Both the position numbers and the translations under genes were made by a program. A stretch of 64,000 nt of DNA from Vampirovibrionaceae bacterium NZW_1234 (lineage in GTDB: Bacteria > Cyanobacteriota > Vampirovibrionia > Vampirovibrionales > JAGQHJ01), in NCBI GenBank assembly GCA_041697335.1, contig JBGUGD010000038.1:93971-157970 (forward strand), in the 5' to 3' direction. The notes beneath the pieces were generated by a model, which searched no databases, had not been told where the DNA came from, and saw nothing but the letters and a program-made list of their open reading frames with translations. This document shows positions 3,509 through 41,742 of this stretch, one piece after another; positions within the stretch are counted from its first letter, which is position 1; the number at the start of each line of letters is the position of its first letter.

Positions 3509-5422
3509 ATGAAAAAGCATCAAACAACCGGTGTCTGGATCTTAGTGCTGATCCTTCTGGTGGTGGTCTTTGCTTCCACCCTGATCTTCAAAGATCAAGG
3601 CGCCATCCCCAAGGATTTGAACCAGACGCAATTTAGCGAAATGGTACGAAACAAAGAGATTACGTCGGTCGTGATTCAGGAACGAGACCTGATGGCCGTA
3701 GGCAAGGATAAAAAGCAGTACAAGCTGGTCCTGCCCGCCAACGATGTCTCCTCCGATCGGATTATGCAGACGTTGGAAGAGAATAATGTACAAATCACCC
3801 AGGTCCGCCCGGAAGAAACCGGCAAGTGGATTGGCGCGCTCACCACATTTATTGTGCCGCTGATTCTCGTCGGCCTCGTCATTTTGATGATCCGCAGCGC
3901 CCAGAGCGGTGGCTCGCAAGCCATGTCCTTTGGCAAAAGCCGGGCCAAGATGATGCCGGAAAACAAGGTCAAAGTGACCTTCAAGGACGTGGCCGGCATT
4001 AGTGAAGCCAAACAAGAGCTGGAAGAAATCGTGGACTTCCTGAAGAACTCCGAGCGTTACCAGAAGCTCGGGGCCCGTATTCCCAAAGGTGTTCTGCTGG
4101 TTGGGGCACCGGGTACCGGTAAAACCCTGCTGGCCAAAGCAGTGGCCGGAGAAGCCGGTGTGGCCTTCTTCACCATCAGCGGTTCGGACTTCGTCGAAAT
4201 GTTCGTCGGGGTCGGTGCCAGCCGGGTACGCGACTTGTTCGAGCAAGCCAAGAAACACTCCCCCTGTATCATCTTCGTCGATGAAATTGATGCCGTGGGC
4301 CGTCAGCGGGGCGCCGGTTTAGGCGGCGGCCACGACGAGCGGGAACAGACCCTGAACCAGTTGCTGGTGGAAATGGACGGTTTTGACTCGGCCAGCGGGA
4401 TCATTATGATCGCCGCCACCAACCGCCCGGACATTCTGGACAACGCCTTGCTGCGTCCGGGTCGTTTCGACCGCCAGGTCATCCTGGATCGCCCAGATGT
4501 CACCGGCCGGGAGGAAATCCTTCGGGTTCATGCCCGCAACAAACCTCTGGCCACGGACGTTGACTTGAAGCGTCTGGCCAAAAGCACCCCTGGCTTTACC
4601 GGGGCCGACCTGGAAAACCTGTTGAACGAAGGGGCCCTGTTGGCCGCTCGTGAAAACCGGGACAAAATCCACATGGAGCACCTGGACTTGGCCATCGACA
4701 AAGTCATTGCCGGGCCTGAAAAGCGCTCCAAAATCATCAAGGAAAAAGAAAAGGAAATCATCGCCTACCACGAAGTGGGTCACACTCTGATGGGCATTTT
4801 TGTTCCCAGCCAGAACAAGTTCCGCAAGGTCAGCATCATCCCCCGCGGGATGGCCCTCGGGATGGCCTGGAATATGCCTGAAGACGACAACCACCTGGTC
4901 ACCCGGGAAGAGCTTCTGGCCAACATTGCCAGCATGCTGGGCGGTCGGGTAGCCGAGGAAGTCATCTTTGGCCGTATCACCACCGGGGCCTCCAACGACA
5001 TCGAGAAGGCCACGGATCTGGCTCGTCGCATCGTCACCATTTATGGGATGAGCGAGCGCCTGGGACCCATCAAGTTCGGCAAGAGCAACGAACACGTGTT
5101 CCTCGGCCGCGACTTCGGCAGCGATCGCGATTACAGTGAGGAAGTGGCCTCGGCCATCGATCACGAAATCAAGACCATCATCGAGACCCAGTACCAGCTG
5201 GCCCAAAAGCTGCTGACGGAAAACCGGGATATGATGGACGCCATCGTCAAGGTGCTCTTGGAAAAAGAAACCATTGACGACAAGGAAGTCACGGGCATTA
5301 TGGACAAGGTGCTGGAAGAGCGGGGCGAAACCCCTCGGTTCTCCTCCCAGCTTCAGCGGGAAACCGAAGAAGCCGAATCCACCAACGGCACCGGTGCCCC
5401 CGAGCGGGAAACCGTTCACTAG
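3509..5422 (+). CDS. ftsH: ATP-dependent zinc metalloprotease FtsH
   Basis: Two TM segments, Walker A GAPGTGKT, Walker [35 protein letters not shown] before ATG 3509. Confidence 0.97.
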
Positions 5423-5443
5423 GCCGAATCACCTACCGAACAA

Positions 5444-6952
5444 TTAAACATCCTTACGAACGCCGGGAAAGTCTACTTTCCCGGTTAGTTTGTATGTGAC
5501 CCAGTGTTGGAACTTGGGCGCCAGCCAGCCAATGCACACGCCGCTGATGACATAGCTGGACAGCAGCGCAATGGTCTTGTACCGACCCGTCAAGGCCAGC
5601 ATCCCAGGCATCCGGGTGCTGTTCACCTTCATCAGCCGGGTGGCCAGTCCGGGAGCCACGTGGGACGAAGTCCGTTTGAAGAGACCCATCTGCCGGGGCA
5701 ACCAGAGCAGTAACCGCTTTAAGGCATCTTCCTCGGCGGGGGCGCTGATCAGCAGGCCTTTTAAATCTTCCACATCCACCAGCTTCCGGGGGTCTAACAG
5801 ATAGTGGTGCTTCGTGGAGGAGACCTTGCCGCCGAAGATTTTCCGGAAGGCGGTCAGGGGCAGGGATTCTTTGGAAGACAAGACGTGAAGCTTATTCTGT
5901 AACCGGGCCAATTCCAGAATCGGGTCCTTATCAAACCTGCCGGTCAAAGGATTTAACCGCTTGGCAATCTCATCAAAGGCATTCTTGCCGGTTAAGCCTT
6001 TGAAGAAGGCCAGTTGCTCCTTCCACAGCTCAGGCTTGAACTGCTTTTTCTTCAGCCACGCCAGAGAATCGTAGGTCAAGCCGGTAAACACGCCTTTGGA
6101 TTTGTCAAACCACCGCTTCAGATGCCCCTTCACATAGTCCCCGAGGAAATAGAGAAACAGGACAATGGACCCTTCCCGAATGGCCACTTCCGTCCGATCC
6201 ACCCAGTTCCGGGCCTTGTACAACCGGCCGCCGGAAATCCCCATATCGATGGCCACGTTGCCGTAGAACTCGCTGTTGATGAGATTGGCAATCCCTTCCA
6301 GCAAACCGGCATTCCCACCAAACCGAGGGTAGGGTTGGGCTGCTGCCCATGCCGGCTGCTGTAAGGGCCCCCTCAGCCCTGTGGGGCTGAGCCCAACCTG
6401 ATGACTGGATGCGATAGAACCCGAATTTTTGGAAAGAAGCGTGTGAAGCGCCTCAAAATTGATGCTTTTCTGGGGCTCGGAAACCTTGGGGGTGCTCTCC
6501 TTGCTGAGCTGGAACCGGGTAATGGCCTGGTTAATGGAGGGAATCACCCACCCGATAATGGCCACCGGAATAATGGTGCCAATCAGAAACTTGGCGATGT
6601 TGGCTTTCAAATAATCGTTCTTCCGGGAGAGAATCCACTGGGGAATGGCTTGCTGGTTTTTCTTCAGGAAGAGCATAATATCGACCTTGGGGTCCAGCCC
6701 TTTCCACCGCATCATGGGGTTCAGAATCCACTTTTCCAAGGCCTTCCGACCGGCCAGCCAGACCAGGGTGGTGCTGAACTCCTCGATCATCCGCTCCCGG
6801 CCCGCATGATTGGCCCCGACGCCACCCCGATTGTATTCCATTGCGCTTCTGCCGGCGTTATCAATGAGGTCCTTCACCCACAACGGGTAAAGGGAGTGCT
6901 CATTGTCGAGCGCCGAGAAGACTTTGGTTGTAACAGCGGGGGAGATTCTCAT
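5444..6952 (-). CDS. Uncharacterised membrane protein with two internal repeats
   Basis: 502 aa; each half has D-x5-GR...E and ends in a hydrophobic IGWxxP...T segment; internal PRFGG; AGGA RBS. Confidence 0.85.
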   Translation of the reverse strand: MRISPAVTTKVFSALDNEHSLYPLWVKDLIDNAGRSAMEYNRGGVGANHAGRERMIEEFSTTLVWLAGRKALEKWILNPMMRWKGLDPKVDIMLFLKKNQQAIPQWILSRKNDYLKANIAKFLIGTIIPVAIIGWVIPSINQAITRFQLSKESTPKVSEPQKSINFEALHTLLSKNSGSIASSHQVGLSPTGLRGPLQQPAWAAAQPYPRFGGNAGLLEGIANLINSEFYGNVAIDMGISGGRLYKARNWVDRTEVAIREGSIVLFLYFLGDYVKGHLKRWFDKSKGVFTGLTYDSLAWLKKKQFKPELWKEQLAFFKGLTGKNAFDEIAKRLNPLTGRFDKDPILELARLQNKLHVLSSKESLPLTAFRKIFGGKVSSTKHHYLLDPRKLVDVEDLKGLLISAPAEEDALKRLLLWLPRQMGLFKRTSSHVAPGLATRLMKVNSTRMPGMLALTGRYKTIALLSSYVISGVCIGWLAPKFQHWVTYKLTGKVDFPGVRKDV

Positions 6953-6998
6953 GGAGAGGGGCGTTCCTACGGTTTCTGGGGTAACGGGGGAAGGGCTT

Positions 6999-7036
6999 GA
7001 AACAAATCAGCCCCGGCAGGTGTCTTGCCGGGGCTG
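6999..7036 (-). terminator. Attenuator terminator 2
   Basis: Minus strand CAGCCCCGGCAAG-ACA-CCTGCCGGGGCTG followed by ATTTGTTT. Confidence 0.85.
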
Positions 7037-7058
7037 TAGGTCGTTTGGGTGTGTCTGT

Positions 7059-7157
7059 TTATGACAACGAACGCCAGCCTCGGCACAATCCAGGGCGGCG
7101 ACGGCGTTGTTGCTGTTGCGCTTGTCTCAGGCTGGTTGTCACGAGGTTGAGGTTCAT
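7059..7157 (-). CDS. Leader peptide 2 (MNLNLVTTSLRQAQQQQRRRRPGLCRGWRSLS)
   Basis: Translated by hand; AGGA upstream; shares AQQQQRRRR with leader 1; its 3' part is complementary to the 5' arm of terminator 2. Confidence 0.8.
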   Translation of the reverse strand: MNLNLVTTSLRQAQQQQRRRRPGLCRGWRSLS

Positions 7158-7195
7158 TGCGGGGGAGGTCCTGTTTCTGGTTTAGGGCTGTAACG

Positions 7196-7230
7196 AAAAA
7201 CCACGGATCTTGTGTTGTGGATCCGTGGTT
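7196..7230 (-). terminator. Attenuator terminator 1
   Basis: Minus strand AACCACGGATC-N10-GATCCGTGGTT followed by TTT. Confidence 0.85.
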
Positions 7231-7266
7231 GTAAGCTGTTTATGCGGTTTTTTAAACGAGCAACTT

Positions 7267-7338
7267 TTACCGTGGATCCACCTGAGGTTGGCGGCTACGG
7301 CGACGGCGTTGTTGTTGCTGTGCAAAAAGTTGACTCAT
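7267..7338 (-). CDS. Leader peptide 1 (MSQLFAQQQQRRRRSRQPQVDPR)
   Basis: Translated by hand; ATG 9 nt after the -10 box (near-leaderless); 3' end GTGGATCC pairs with the 5' arm of terminator 1. Confidence 0.8.
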   Translation of the reverse strand: MSQLFAQQQQRRRRSRQPQVDPR

Positions 7339-7347
7339 AGTACAGTC

Positions 7348-7375
7348 ATTATCACTGTAAAAAGCATATTGTCAA
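7348..7375 (-). promoter_or_regulatory. Sigma70 promoter of the tandem attenuator leader
   Basis: TTGACA-N16-GATAAT on the minus strand. Confidence 0.7.
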
Positions 7376-7398
7376 GGCGACACAATCTCGATTTCGCC

Positions 7399-7423
7399 GA
7401 TTTGTAACACCCCGTTACAAATC
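7399..7423. promoter_or_regulatory. Palindromic operator candidate
   Basis: GATTTGTAAC-N5-GTTACAAATC, a perfect 10-bp inverted repeat with no U tract. Confidence 0.45.
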
Positions 7424-7446
7424 CGAAAAGACATCTCGAGTTGATA

Positions 7447-8475
7447 TCAAATGCCGGTATTCAGCAGATCGTGGAGGTGGACAATGCCTTCGGAGTACCC
7501 CTCGGCGGTGTTCACCGGAAGGACGGTAATCTTGTTGTTCTCCATCATGGCCAATGCGGCGGCGGCCAAGGCTTCCTTGCCAATGCTCTTGGGATTGGCC
7601 GTGTAAACATCCCGGGCCTTCAGCGTGGCGATGTCCTGATCCCGGGTGAGGGCCCGGCGGACATCCCCATCGGTAATCACGCCGCAGGTCTTGCCTTGGG
7701 CATCGGTCACCAGGGTCACCCCGAGTTTTTTCGAGGTAATTTCCAACAGGGCTTCTTTAAAAGGCGTATCCAACTGCACCACGGGCAGGGCATCACCGGT
7801 ATGCATCACGTCACCCACCGTTAGCAGCAGTCGCTTTCCAAGGCTGCCTGCCGGATGAAAGACGGCAAAGTCGTTGGTTGTAATGCCTTTTCGGCGCATC
7901 AGGGTTACGGCCAGGGCATCGCCCATCACCAGGGTGTTGGTGGTGCTGGCCGTGGGGGCCAGGTTCAGGGGGCAGGCCTCCTGCTCCACGGAAATGTCGA
8001 GGACCACATCACTGCGGCGGGCCAGGGTGGACTCCCCATTGCCGGTCATGGCAATCAGGGGGAGGTTAAAATGCTTGACTACCGGCAAAACTTGAAGTAG
8101 TTCCGGAGTTTCGCCGCTGTTGGAGATGGCAATGACCACATCGTCTTTCATAATCATTCCCAAATCCCCGTGCATGCCTTCGCCCGGATGGAGAAAGAAG
8201 GCCGGTGTGCCGGTACTGGAGAACGTGGCAGCTATTTTCTTGGCGATAATACCGGATTTGCCCATCCCGGTAAGAATCACCCGCCCCTGGCAGGCTTCCA
8301 GAATCCGAATTGCCCGTTCAAAGCGATGATCCAGGCGGGCTTGCATCTGATGCAAGGCGGCGATTTCAATACTCATCACCCGATGGGCTTCTTCCACGGG
8401 ATTAATGGTTTCAGCCGGGGGTGTCAGGCGTTCCCTGGACAGCGGTTCCTCTTTGAGGTGTTCCATCGGAGTCAA
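7447..8475 (-). CDS. kdsD: Arabinose-5-phosphate isomerase (KpsF/GutQ family; SIS + CBS domains)
   Basis: TGMGKSG, HGDLG, SNSGET, APTAST and FHPAGSLG motifs; CBS pair. Confidence 0.93.
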   Translation of the reverse strand: MTPMEHLKEEPLSRERLTPPAETINPVEEAHRVMSIEIAALHQMQARLDHRFERAIRILEACQGRVILTGMGKSGIIAKKIAATFSSTGTPAFFLHPGEGMHGDLGMIMKDDVVIAISNSGETPELLQVLPVVKHFNLPLIAMTGNGESTLARRSDVVLDISVEQEACPLNLAPTASTTNTLVMGDALAVTLMRRKGITTNDFAVFHPAGSLGKRLLLTVGDVMHTGDALPVVQLDTPFKEALLEITSKKLGVTLVTDAQGKTCGVITDGDVRRALTRDQDIATLKARDVYTANPKSIGKEALAAAALAMMENNKITVLPVNTAEGYSEGIVHLHDLLNTGI

Positions 8476-8662
8476 AGACCACTCCTTGAGGTTGTGTCAA
8501 CTCTGCTTGAATCATAGCACAAACGATTCGCCTCGGAAGCCATGGGGGGATGACTTGCCCAGGGCCTAACGGACTGATCATTGGCAAACAACGCCCGGTG
8601 GCGTCTTTAATTCCGGATTCCGGTGTTTTTCAAACCAATTGTCACGTTTTATGACGTTTTTT

Positions 8663-8689
8663 TAAACTTTGTTCGAATCGGGTCGATAC
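8663..8689 (+). promoter_or_regulatory. Sigma28 (FliA/SigD)-type promoter
   Basis: TAAA-N15-GTCGATAC, 43 bp upstream of the HD-GYP gene. Confidence 0.65.
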
Positions 8690-8732
8690 AGAAATTAACT
8701 TTCCTCCGAAAACGACTGAGAGAGCTACGCCA

Positions 8733-9722
8733 TTGCTGATTAAACTACGTTTTGATGAAGTTGTAAGCCAGCAACCCTTGGCTTATGACATTTTAGACAG
8801 TCTTGGCCGGGTCATTTACCAGGCCGGCGAGACCGTGGAGAGCAAGAATCTTCGTAAAATCGCCCCCGACGGCATGTTCCGTCATCAAGAAAAACTTCCC
8901 CTGGAGTGGATTGTTCAGGACGAGATGCCCCAATTCTCGGACACCACCCAGTTGCAGTCCATCCTGAACCAATCCGATGAATACGCCCTGGAAGAACTGA
9001 ATATTCCCTTCCTCCTGAACCGGGAAGAAGCCGTGCCCTACCTGAACAGCATGTTCGGCTTCTGGAAAAAAATCGAAGACGGCGAAGATTTCGATCTGGC
9101 GTTACTGGACATCATGCGCCATCAGTTGATAGCCGATATCGTCCCCAAGATGGGACAACTCCAGTATTTAAACCAGCTTCGCATCCGGGATGAAGTCACT
9201 TTTTCGCACACCCTGGATGTGACGGCCATTAGCATTGCGCTGGGAGCCAAGCTCGGGCTTGATAACAAAGACCTCGAGACTTTGGCTCTCGCCGCCCTTC
9301 TCCATGATCTGGGCAAACTGTTCATCCCCAAACCCATTATGTTCAAGCCCACCCGGCTCACGGACAAAGAGTTCGAGGTCATGCAACTGCACCCGGAAAT
9401 CGGCTACCGCATTATTCGGGAAGAACTGAAGCTGCCCGAAGAAGTGGCCCGCCCCGCCCTGGAGCACCAGGAGCTGTATGCCGGCGGCGGCTATCCGCAA
9501 AACCTCCGGGGAGACGAAATCCACTACTTCTCCCAGATTGTGAAAATTGCCGACGTCTATGATGCCTTAACGTCAAAACGCCCCTACAAAGAGAGCATCT
9601 GCTCCTACAAGGCCATTAAAATCATGCTCCTCGAAGGCAGCCAAAGCTTCAACCCGGAAATCCTGCGTCCCTTCCTGGATTTAGCCAACTTCCCCAAAGA
9701 CGAAATTCCCGACGACCTCTAA
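8733..9722 (+). CDS. HD-GYP domain cyclic dinucleotide phosphodiesterase
   Basis: LLHDLGK, HPEIG, HQE...GGGYP, ADVYDAL..RPYK. Confidence 0.9.
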   Translation: MLIKLRFDEVVSQQPLAYDILDSLGRVIYQAGETVESKNLRKIAPDGMFRHQEKLPLEWIVQDEMPQFSDTTQLQSILNQSDEYALEELNIPFLLNREEAVPYLNSMFGFWKKIEDGEDFDLALLDIMRHQLIADIVPKMGQLQYLNQLRIRDEVTFSHTLDVTAISIALGAKLGLDNKDLETLALAALLHDLGKLFIPKPIMFKPTRLTDKEFEVMQLHPEIGYRIIREELKLPEEVARPALEHQELYAGGGYPQNLRGDEIHYFSQIVKIADVYDALTSKRPYKESICSYKAIKIMLLEGSQSFNPEILRPFLDLANFPKDEIPDDL

Positions 9723-9785: not shown

Positions 9786-10070
9786 TTAGCCTGCAATTTT
9801 TTTAAGGGGTTTGTGCGTTTTGCCAGCGACATAGAGATCATAATTCGTCTGGAGGTTCATCCACATCTCTGGGCCGGTTCCAAATGCATCTCCCAACTTG
9901 AAGGCCATTTCCGGGCTGACGGAGCGCTTTCCATTAATAATTTCATTTAAGCCGTTACGGGCAATACCCAAATACTGGGCAAGCTGGGTTTGGGTTAACC
10001 CCAAGGGGCCCATATATAATTCTTTCAAGATTTCGCCAGGATGAGTAGGTTGTCTGTTTGTGGGCAACAT
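9786..10070 (-). CDS. higA: HigA-family antitoxin (XRE HTH)
   Basis: PTHPGEIL...LTQTQLA...WMNLQTNYDL. Confidence 0.92.
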   Translation of the reverse strand: MLPTNRQPTHPGEILKELYMGPLGLTQTQLAQYLGIARNGLNEIINGKRSVSPEMAFKLGDAFGTGPEMWMNLQTNYDLYVAGKTHKPLKKIAG

Positions 10071-10085
10071 AATCGAAAGCTCCTT

Positions 10086-10376
10086 TCAATGATAATCTGT
10101 GATTTGGACATCATACGCGTGTCCGTTCTCAAATCTGAAGATAATGCGGTATTGATCATTCACGCTGACAGACCAAAAATCGTTTAAATCGCCCGACAAC
10201 TTATGCAGCCGTGTCCCTGGCGGTGTTCCCATGGCGTTGGCATCAATCACGGCATTCAGTTGATCCAGCATTAACCGGGCTCGACGGTGCAACTGAGAAG
10301 GAATTTTTCGGGCAGATTTTGTGTTTCTGCCCTGAAAGATATCTTCCGTGGTGTCGTCGCGAAATGAGTGAATCAT
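10086..10376 (-). CDS. higB: HigB-family (RelE/ParE superfamily) toxin
   Basis: MIHSFRD...PPGTRLHKLSG...WSVSVNDQYRIIFRF...DYH; toxin gene precedes antitoxin. Confidence 0.92.
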   Translation of the reverse strand: MIHSFRDDTTEDIFQGRNTKSARKIPSQLHRRARLMLDQLNAVIDANAMGTPPGTRLHKLSGDLNDFWSVSVNDQYRIIFRFENGHAYDVQITDYH

Positions 10377-10382
10377 GCCTTT

Positions 10383-10411
10383 ATTGTAGCGCGTAGCGTC
10401 ATAAATTACAA
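10383..10411 (-). promoter_or_regulatory. higBA promoter (probably leaderless) with flanking inverted repeat
   Basis: TTGTAA-N17-TACAAT, 6 nt before the ATG; ATTGTA...TACAAT inverted repeat. Confidence 0.6.
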
Positions 10412-10488
10412 TCCGGGGATAGAAAGTAAACACACGCCATTGCCCTTCCGATGCCGGAAGGAACATGGTCTAGAACGACGCCTGAAGA

Positions 10489-41333: not shown

Positions 41334-41742
41334 CTTCAGCCTGCCGAGTCACCCCAGGCAGGTGAACCTCCAAAACAGGTTTCTTACAGGCGACTTTGAA
41401 CTGGGTATAGGCATCGAAGGCCCGATCAAAATCAGTCTGGGTCAGATCCTCCTGATGCGCCAGGAAAAAATCATGCACCCGATCCTGATTATCCTCGTGG
41501 GAATATGCCATGGACACATCGGCCCCGAGCTCTCGCATCAGAAAAACAGCGTCGTCATCGGTCAGCACCCGTGCCATGACCTCCTCCCCTGAGCGACGAA
41601 ACGAATCAGCCTCAGCGATAGGACGCGTCGACGCCACCGTGAGTCGAGCGGTGCGATCCATGCGAATAATTTCGCTGTGGACCTCAAACTCCCGGGGACC
41701 ATACACCCGAGCGACGGCTGAAAAACGAACTGGAGAGACCAT
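41308..41742 (-). CDS. Hypothetical protein (N-terminal VRFS)
   Basis: ATG immediately follows the E2 stop codon. Confidence 0.65.
   Translation of the reverse strand: MVSPVRFSAVARVYGPREFEVHSEIIRMDRTARLTVASTRPIAEADSFRRSGEEVMARVLTDDDAVFLMRELGADVSMAYSHEDNQDRVHDFFLAHQEDLTQTDFDRAFDAYTQFKVACKKPVLEVHLPGVTRQAEAKTESPQP

Follow-up and report, generated by a model that had tools for sequence, protein, structure and literature searches.

What do two short open reading frames (micro-ORFs), each with a run of arginine codons and each followed by an intrinsic terminator, do ahead of a gene for a membrane protein? The question is raised by positions 6,953 to 7,375 of a 64,000-nucleotide (nt) stretch of DNA from Vampirovibrionaceae bacterium NZW_1234 (assembly GCA_041697335.1, contig JBGUGD010000038.1, positions 93,971 to 157,970 of the forward strand); this whole stretch is called the window, and its source, a Vampirovibrionales metagenome-assembled genome (MAG) of 94.75% completeness, is called G000. 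The locus is read on the minus strand and displays, in this order, one promoter, leader ORF 1, terminator 1, leader ORF 2, terminator 2, and a gene (6952-5444) encoding a protein of 502 amino acids (aa). It is a real, conserved regulatory element, and judged from its sequence it probably comprises two ribosome-mediated leader-peptide attenuators in series, which share one promoter, sense charged tRNA-Arg, and control the single membrane-protein gene. The anatomy, conservation, pairing potential, and codon rules of the locus, together with its similarity to an argC leader, were observed directly, and from these we infer ribosome stalling, read-through at the terminators, the nature of the signal, and the part played by the protein.

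Anatomy of the two units and predicted ribosome-dependent pairing

All elements named in the preliminary description were confirmed on the minus strand by reading of the sequence and of the ORF list. The sigma-70-type promoter (7375-7348) was composed of the -35 element TTGACA (7375-7370), a 16-nt spacer, and the -10 element GATAAT (7353-7348); it matched the consensus at 11 of 12 positions, had the top score of all sites within 5000-9000, and was the only promoter predicted for both units plus the gene. A nearly identical -35 context was found ahead of the leader in the related genome G003. Only 9 nt separated the -10 element from the ATG of leader 1, so this leader would probably be translated from a leaderless or nearly leaderless transcript.

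Unit 1 harbored leader ORF 1 (7338-7267; 23 codons plus stop), in which four Gln codons (7320-7309) were directly followed by the Arg run CGC CGT CGC CGT (7308-7297), with an extra CGC at 7293-7291; the last codons of this leader made up the putative antiterminator strand (7281-7269), able to pair with the 5' arm of terminator 1. Terminator 1 (7230-7196) displayed the structure stem 7228-7220 plus 7209-7201, 10-nt loop, and U-tract TTTTT (7200-7196), with a 9-bp core at -13.7 kcal/mol; its loop was above the loop limit of the hairpin scan, and it was thus missing from the scan output. Unit 2 harbored leader ORF 2 (7157-7059; 32 codons plus stop) with four Gln codons (7118-7107) and the four-codon Arg run CGC CGT CGC CGC (7106-7095). 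Region 1 of unit 2, at the start of leader 2 (7159-7142), paired with 7082-7065 in the minimum-energy fold to give an anti-antiterminator stem, and region 2, the antiterminator strand (7085-7066), could pair with 7045-7026, which included the 5' arm of terminator 2. Terminator 2 (7036-7000), the stronger of the two, displayed stem 7036-7026 plus 7018-7008 (11 pairs, 9 of them G-C; -23.2 kcal/mol), a 7-nt loop, and a U-rich tract (7007-7000). Ahead of both leader 2 (7174-7155) and the main gene (6970-6950), an AGGA lay some 13 nt 5' of the ATG, the spacer being rich in C, and similar AGGA-ATG spacing preceded homologues of the gene in G003, G012, and G022; this would be either an unusually long Shine-Dalgarno spacing or another initiation signal.

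Four Gln codons with four CGN codons directly behind them were found twice in the window against an expectation of 0.01, and 0 of 100 shuffles contained this pattern at least twice. Both units folded better than their shuffled versions: z = -3.27 for unit 1 (an equally good fold in 1 of 200 shuffles) and z = -4.70 for unit 2 (0 of 200). The two leader cores were alike (local score 37 versus 17.3 +/- 2.6, reached by 0 of 500 shuffles), while the stems were unlike; this agreed with the earlier suggestion of selection on peptide motif and architecture despite unrelated stems, the Arg run being the part kept in relatives. A short ORF in the 5' leader (both ORFs sit between promoter and gene), a regulatory codon run for one amino acid (four consecutive Arg codons per leader), and an intrinsic terminator between leader ORF and gene were all present, and the trp/his-type geometry in tandem arrangement that had been described for the locus was supported.

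The element appeared to be the only one of its kind in G000: (i) no further copies were found by DNA search; (ii) a crude Arg-run screen returned noise and rpmJ only; and (iii) a stricter intergenic screen for runs of CGH (CGT, CGC, or CGA) returned 21 micro-ORFs, among which an ATG plus a well-placed terminator occurred in the two known units only. The search for QQQQRRRR micro-ORFs with terminators elsewhere in the genome, a check proposed at the outset, thus came back empty. The genome-wide screen also returned a 46-codon intergenic ORF of the window (41562-41702, minus strand) with three consecutive CGH codons and a distant hairpin, which is probably spurious. An Rfam scan of the locus (E <= 10) gave four chance-level matches to eukaryotic small nucleolar RNAs and microRNAs (best E = 0.15) and no leader or T-box family. 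Sequencing runs listed for the locus comprised 12 DNA runs that cover the whole of it or a part, and no RNA run.

According to the proposed mechanism, leader 1 would be transcribed by RNA polymerase while a ribosome translates it. When charged tRNA-Arg is plentiful, the ribosome would pass the four CGY codons (CGC or CGT) to the end of the micro-ORF and there cover the antiterminator strand, the terminator would form, and transcription would stop. When charged tRNA-Arg is scarce, the ribosome would stall at the Arg codons, or possibly earlier, at the Gln codons, and leave the downstream strand free to pair with the terminator 5' arm, resulting in read-through. Unit 2 would repeat the decision, and the two gates would multiply, making the off-state tighter and the response steeper. 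The sensor would respond to the isoacceptor reading CGU, CGC, and CGA (anticodon ACG/ICG in a closed relative), and arginine shortage would de-repress the membrane protein.

The preliminary description held that in each unit the sequence just after the Arg run can pair with the unit's own terminator. This stood for unit 2, whose antiterminator reached -19.0 kcal/mol versus a shuffle mean of -11.5 kcal/mol (p = 0.003) with pairing that began 15 nt past the run, and it was weak for unit 1 (-9.1 versus -7.6 kcal/mol in shuffles, p = 0.20), where direct reading of the sequence paired 11 of the 13 positions of 7281-7269 with the 5' arm and the arm as defined for the energy test omitted loop-side bases used in that pairing. 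Across 16 units, the best partner of the 5' arm began 4-21 nt past the Arg run, inside the micro-ORF, in 15; the energy of this partner was -14 to -19.3 kcal/mol in 11 units, and p < 0.05 (300 shuffles) was obtained in nine.

When whole units were folded at equilibrium, the terminator won at every ribosome placement, an outcome to be expected of a kinetic switch; the model therefore needs the usual kinetic assumption, and equilibrium folding with ribosome footprints was rejected as an uninformative test. The transcripts were therefore ended short of the 3' arm and folded with the ribosome footprint at every codon in turn, and the pairing of the 5' arm was read out as a kinetic-style test. In both window units and in G004, G012, G022, G024, G026, and G036, pairing of the 5' arm was 0.6-0.9 with the A-site on or before the run and dropped to 0.2-0.4 within a few further codons; in unit 1 the value was 0.8 until the A-site passed the run and then 0.2-0.4, and in G006 it fell at the last two codons only. 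Folding with and without a ribosome, as had been advised for each unit, thus told nothing for whole units and spoke for the scheme in transcripts lacking the 3' arm, where the 5' arm was freed once the ribosome was past the run. On these profiles, the Arg run is, within the model, the last position where a stalled ribosome still leaves the antiterminator free. An antiterminator masked at the ORF end and free during a stall at the run was thereby found computationally, clearly for unit 2 and most relatives and weakly for unit 1.

Several of these pairing results count against attenuation by a stalled ribosome, the equilibrium outcome and the weak unit 1 energy among them: (i) pairing of the antiterminator was likewise weak in G004 unit 1 (p = 0.66), G006, G023, and G033; (ii) the footprint profile was flat in G002, G020, G038, G023, and G040; and (iii) the window 5' arms were already 0.69-0.72 paired without a ribosome, and an untranslated transcript might, unlike that of trp, read through.

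Conservation and codon choice of the leaders

The DNA 5' of homologues of the 502-aa protein was taken in gene orientation. An Arg-run micro-ORF on the strand of the gene, followed by a hairpin plus U-tract, was found in 19 genomes of the order Vampirovibrionales (G000, G002, G003, G004, G006, G012, G020, G022, G023, G024, G026, G030, G033, G036, G038, G040, G181, G186, and G192), so that the preset check for conservation upstream of homologues turned out positive. One identical fast detector found the leader in 9 of 15 true upstream regions and in none of the controls (15 wrong-strand, 15 coding). G003 and G004, both from the window's own family, also looked tandem, with two units in series; the G002 region was cut by a contig end, and the upstream DNA of G014 and G189 was too short to judge. 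The feature kept across the order was the Arg run, usually with Asn before it and often with Pro after it, and the terminator stems differed among genomes.

Two further observations were made in these upstream regions. Genus g20 had an additional ORF between the Arg leader and the family gene, about 120 aa long, with its own terminator and three repeats of 13 residues starting YRHD (about 360 nt 5' of the family gene in G040, 1340-1640 in G024, and on the minus strand in G036), while in G016 the YRHD repeats were in frame with the N-terminus of the family gene. In G022, about 300-430 nt 5' of the family gene and just 5' of the leader's promoter, there was a stretch with its own terminator that, by eye, resembles a tRNA gene.

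The Gln run was present in the window genome only (1 of the 19 leader-bearing genomes), and neither Gln nor Asn preceded the run in G022, G020, G006, G023, and G033. Both of these facts bear on a dual Gln plus Arg (nitrogen-status) attenuator, operating in this genome only, in which starvation for either amino acid would open the gates. Such a sensor would explain why the Gln codons, four per leader, are kept immediately ahead of the Arg run in both window leaders, it would profit from the antiterminator being left free with the A-site on the Gln codons, and it would fit the frequent presence in relatives of Asn, the other amide amino acid, at that place. It is nevertheless unlikely, given the distribution just described, an unremarkable Gln codon choice (CAA 6 of 8 versus 45% genome-wide), the recurrence of part of the Gln-rich stretch in a related argC leader (see below), from which it may be simply inherited, and the presence in G000 of both glutaminyl-tRNA synthetase (GlnRS) and asparaginyl-tRNA synthetase (AsnRS), which leaves no shared amidotransferase bottleneck. 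From the earlier proposal of tRNA-Gln and/or tRNA-Arg sensing, the Arg part is thus retained on the 19 genomes and the codon choice, and the Gln part, in the form in which it was stated, is not supported.

The same two synthetases led to the rejection of another candidate, in which the Asn/Gln codons report GatCAB-only charging. The GlnRS match of G000 (C39:44587-46800) shared one 954-aa open frame with a GatB/YqeY-like C-terminal match, and this arrangement suggests a fused GlnRS.

The codons of the Arg run pointed to the sensing of one tRNA-Arg isoacceptor. In the 16 units, the run codons were CGT 13, CGC 33, CGA 19, CGG 2, AGA 1, and AGG 3 (CGH 65 of 71), while in the downstream family genes of the same loci CGH accounted for 121 and CGG for 192 of 383 Arg codons. 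The split was sharpest in the window, where the 28 Arg codons of the 502-aa gene were CGG 23, CGT 1, AGA 2, and AGG 2, i.e., 1 of 28 CGH versus 65.7% genome-wide (binomial p = 5e-12); the gene avoids CGU, CGC, and CGA and would thus still be translatable under the inducing condition. CGH but never CGG is the decoding set of an inosine-bearing tRNA-Arg. The closed genome of a relative, G006, had exactly four tRNA-Arg genes (ACG, CCG, CCU, and UCU), and there the leader run was all CGH while the gene contained 2 CGH and 18 CGG among 20 Arg codons. The G000 assembly contained tRNA-Arg CCG, CCU, UCG, and UCU, with tRNA-Arg(UCG) at C14:20324-20399, and the ACG gene was not found in it, so the isoacceptor argument rests on a relative. 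Selective-charging theory (PMC1183508) holds that leader codon choice is biased to one isoacceptor, and a sensor in the codons of one isoacceptor with a target in those of another matches it.

Related leaders were also found in f7, a family of the same class with about 30% guanine-plus-cytosine content, 26-34 nt ahead of homologues. These leaders had a strong Shine-Dalgarno sequence, started with M-x-N-N-R-R, and ended in a conserved seven-residue peptide with W-G-L-stop; the codons for Leu, Gly, Val, and Asn and the stop codon varied under conservation of this C-terminal peptide. The Arg doublet was CGA-CGA in eight of nine leaders and CGT-CGA in one, and the other leader Arg codons were AGA or AGG, while the f7 genes used AGA for 96 and CGA for 1 of 108 Arg codons. 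A pattern search gave 16 matches in 14 of 101 f7 genomes: nine of these, eight ahead of a family gene and one at a contig end, had CGA-CGA, and the remaining seven were background. A helix joined the codons just past the Arg doublet to the sequence just before the ribosome-binding site of the main gene, and the expression platform of f7 may on this evidence be translational rather than transcriptional.

It is in this f7 branch that an arrest peptide of SpeFL/TnaC type becomes more plausible, in which the nascent Asn/Gln-Arg-Arg segment would recognize a small molecule inside the exit tunnel, and the ribosome, stalled at a fixed later position, would alter RNA folding. Two consecutive Arg residues of SpeFL help to bind ornithine about 21-22 residues before the stop (10.1101/604074), and the f7 Arg doublet lies about 20 residues before a stop codon that comes after a C-terminus conserved at the peptide level. 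Within the order, the distance from run to stop ranged from 4 to 27 codons, and the C-terminal peptide was not conserved but tracked the terminator sequence; the arrest peptide responding to a ligand or antibiotic, offered in the preliminary description as an alternative, is hence not favoured there. It would also leave unexplained both the exclusion of CGG and AGR from the run and the codon avoidance of the gene, and no Pfam family, DUF2618 included, matched the leaders at E <= 10. For the window locus an arrest peptide is accordingly improbable.

Leader translation itself would be dispensable if the micro-ORFs were accidental and the two units were either a pair of paralogous small RNAs or simple terminators for the kpsF-like gene upstream. 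A strong promoter followed by a terminator about 140 nt later is the anatomy of a small-RNA gene too, and the common 26-nt core could be a seed. This explanation is scarcely credible, in view of frames that are open, with start and stop, in 19 genomes despite differing sequence; of third positions in the run that obey a wobble rule and not a pairing rule; of the synonymous variation under peptide conservation in f7; and of a single predicted promoter for both units plus the gene, with no Rfam match.

Arginine supply and the membrane protein

A link from the leader type to arginine was provided by the argC loci. Among 28 of them checked, a CGH Arg-run micro-ORF was found upstream in three of eight from f5 (G088, G118, and G109), and a terminator was detected for G088 and G118; the 20 argC loci from f2, f4, f6, f8, and f9 had no CGH Arg-run leader, the one from G128 (f6) showing only a non-consecutive R-A-R-R micro-ORF with no terminator. 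Window unit 2 and the G088 argC leader were similar with a score of 31 versus 16.1 +/- 2.3 in 500 shuffles (maximum 29), and the similarity spanned the Gln-rich stretch, the run plus Pro-Gly-Leu, and the terminator 5' arm.

Judged from the gene content of G000, the organism apparently does not synthesize its own arginine: no argG was detected, argH and argB gave nothing above their cut-offs, and a search for argC at E <= 1e-40 was empty. The signal would then be the external arginine supply. Ornithine carbamoyltransferase was present; its assignment to an arginine deiminase pathway was rejected because arcA was not found. A strong argG match occurred in only 2 of the 19 leader-bearing genomes (G040 and G181). 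Across the class, strong argG matches fell in families without a match to the membrane-protein family, with none in f1 and 2 among 99 f7 genomes; the genomes are kin, and the distribution is thus given as a pattern with no statistical test.

These data also bear on a general sensor of translation speed or capacity, in which the run would be intrinsically slow (I:A wobble at CGA, polybasic chain) and would report, in place of arginine, how well ribosomes perform, the state of tRNA modification, or compounds that target the ribosome. Ribosomes are indeed slowed by polybasic runs and by CGA decoding, and the CGA-CGA pair of the f7 leaders is a very rare one. The window run, however, uses the common codons CGC and CGT (together 50% of Arg codons in G000), in relatives an operon for arginine biosynthesis has a leader of this type ahead of it, and the association with genomes without a strong argG match would remain unexplained; such a sensor is very improbable.

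The 502-aa product is a membrane protein, mostly helical, whose family is unnamed and occurs in the class Vampirovibrionia only. The family profile matched 138 of 301 sampled genomes of the class: the family was nearly universal in f1-f3 and f7 (97 of 99 in f7, with several paralogues each), and f5, f6, f8, and f9 gave no match. Searches with the 502-aa protein found no match in Pfam or, by sequence profile, in the PDB, and only a chance match (0.19) in NCBIfam; a search of 5.8 billion proteins gave 10 matches, all unnamed, the ESM Atlas gave unnamed Melainabacteria clusters only, and a single-protein search of a collection of genome contigs gave nothing. A closer family alignment search returned three named MAG records plus one distant metagenome locus, the named homologues coming from "Vampirovibrionales bacterium" and "uncultured cyanobacterium" MAGs. 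The AlphaFold model was mostly helical (mean predicted local distance difference test score, pLDDT, 65.7); Foldseek with this model found no match in the PDB at E <= 0.001, and the wide VIA-align search gave as its best only generic helical bundles (Z 6.0), within the tool's common range. Two distant paralogues in G000, on contigs C25 and C13, had no leader upstream. The C13 paralogue (about 187565-190150, minus strand; 873 aa) directly follows an ORF that, by eye, resembles an amino-acid permease of APC type. Elsewhere in the window, two adjacent small ORFs (9786-10466, minus strand; 94 and 126 aa) resemble, by eye, a HigA/HigB-type antitoxin-toxin pair.

Beyond the folding results, several points weigh against tRNA-Arg attenuators in control of this gene: (i) the homologues in G010, G011, G016, and G017 had no upstream leader, and related genomes are not independent samples; (ii) the CGG skew of the gene was absent in G012, G004, and G033; (iii) the G000 assembly had no tRNA-Arg(ACG) gene, in a tRNA set that is incomplete (tRNA-Glu is missing too, and several tRNAs lie at contig ends); (iv) G040 and G181 contained both leader and argG; (v) in f7, CGA is very rare and selective charging would not predict starvation sensitivity for it, no U-tract terminator was seen after the leaders, and conservation of the C-terminal peptide may point to a role of the nascent peptide; and (vi) the 502-aa gene has no known arginine link and no known function.

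With these points set beside the evidence above, the attenuator reading stays the probable one, and a wider proposal can be put forward tentatively. The leaders could be an undescribed arginine attenuon of Vampirovibrionia built only on tRNA-Arg(ICG) codons. In prototrophs they would control the arg operon; in auxotrophs, among them Gastranaerophilales-like lineages of the gut, they would have acquired a new target, a membrane-protein family specific to the class and written in the codons of the other isoacceptor, with a part in arginine acquisition or the response to arginine starvation. If this is true, nature would here offer an example of sensor and target codons being kept apart by selective tRNA charging. 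An attenuator at this place would also imply that the family is induced by arginine shortage in organisms seemingly unable to make arginine, and an anonymous membrane-protein family present in 138 of 301 sampled genomes would thereby gain its first functional handle.

Comparison with known systems

Firmicutes arginine T-boxes resemble the proposed mechanism in that the terminator is read through when tRNA-Arg is uncharged; they differ in binding the tRNA directly and needing no translation, and the window locus gave no T-box match at E <= 10. Two terminator gates in series before one gene are familiar from tandem riboswitches and tandem T-boxes, which are ligand- or tRNA-binding RNAs and not leader peptides.

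SpeFL/ORF34 (DUF2618, upstream of speF in gamma-proteobacteria) is the published arginine case that comes nearest, and it is similar in having an upstream ORF in which two consecutive Arg codons transduce arginine availability via ribosome pausing and alternative mRNA structure (PMC6386406). SpeFL works by Rho-dependent termination plus RNase G and is also an arrest peptide that binds ornithine, with the motif HIRRXXH (10.1101/604074), while the window locus uses an intrinsic terminator plus antiterminator. Rare and frequent Arg codons both worked for SpeFL. Neither window leader matched the SpeFL family PF10940 (DUF2618), with 0 Pfam families at E <= 10, neither contained the motif HIRRXXH, and the gene that follows does not encode an ornithine decarboxylase.

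The f5 argC leaders of G088, G118, and G109 share with the window the CGH Arg run, G088 and G118 the terminator as well, and G088 also the similarity to unit 2. They control argC, the expected logic; the window leaders are duplicated in tandem and would control a membrane protein, and no arg pathway was found in their genome.

The closest general model is that of trpL, hisL, pheL, thrL, leuL, and the ilv leaders, which like the window locus have a short ORF, a codon run for one amino acid, and mutually exclusive antiterminator and terminator, with the ribosome position deciding between them; classical leaders likewise have isoacceptor-biased leader codons (PMC1183508). The window locus differs in the amino acid (arginine), in the target (a non-biosynthetic membrane protein), in the presence of two complete units in series, in a first start that is probably leaderless, in its lineage, Vampirovibrionia, and in having no match to an Rfam leader family. 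In the literature searched, leader-peptide attenuation was described for His, Trp, Phe, Thr, Leu, and Ile/Val, and arginine was served by T-boxes and SpeFL/ORF34; a 2005 comparative paper (PMC1262725) gives only T-boxes as RNA-level regulation for arginine, and attenuators for His, Thr, and Phe. That search, with subscription papers and supplements outside its scope, returned, among the papers listed, no Arg-codon terminator attenuator and no attenuation in Vampirovibrio, in agreement with the earlier remark that no tandem Gln4-Arg4 attenuator has been described.

Vampirovibrionia is the non-photosynthetic sister class of Cyanobacteria. With an Arg-codon terminator attenuator in it, the classical mechanism would reach a new amino acid, a sister lineage of Cyanobacteria that has been little studied, and a target outside biosynthesis, and the codon split between leader (CGU, CGC, and CGA) and gene (almost exclusively CGG) would be a clear natural illustration of selective-charging theory.

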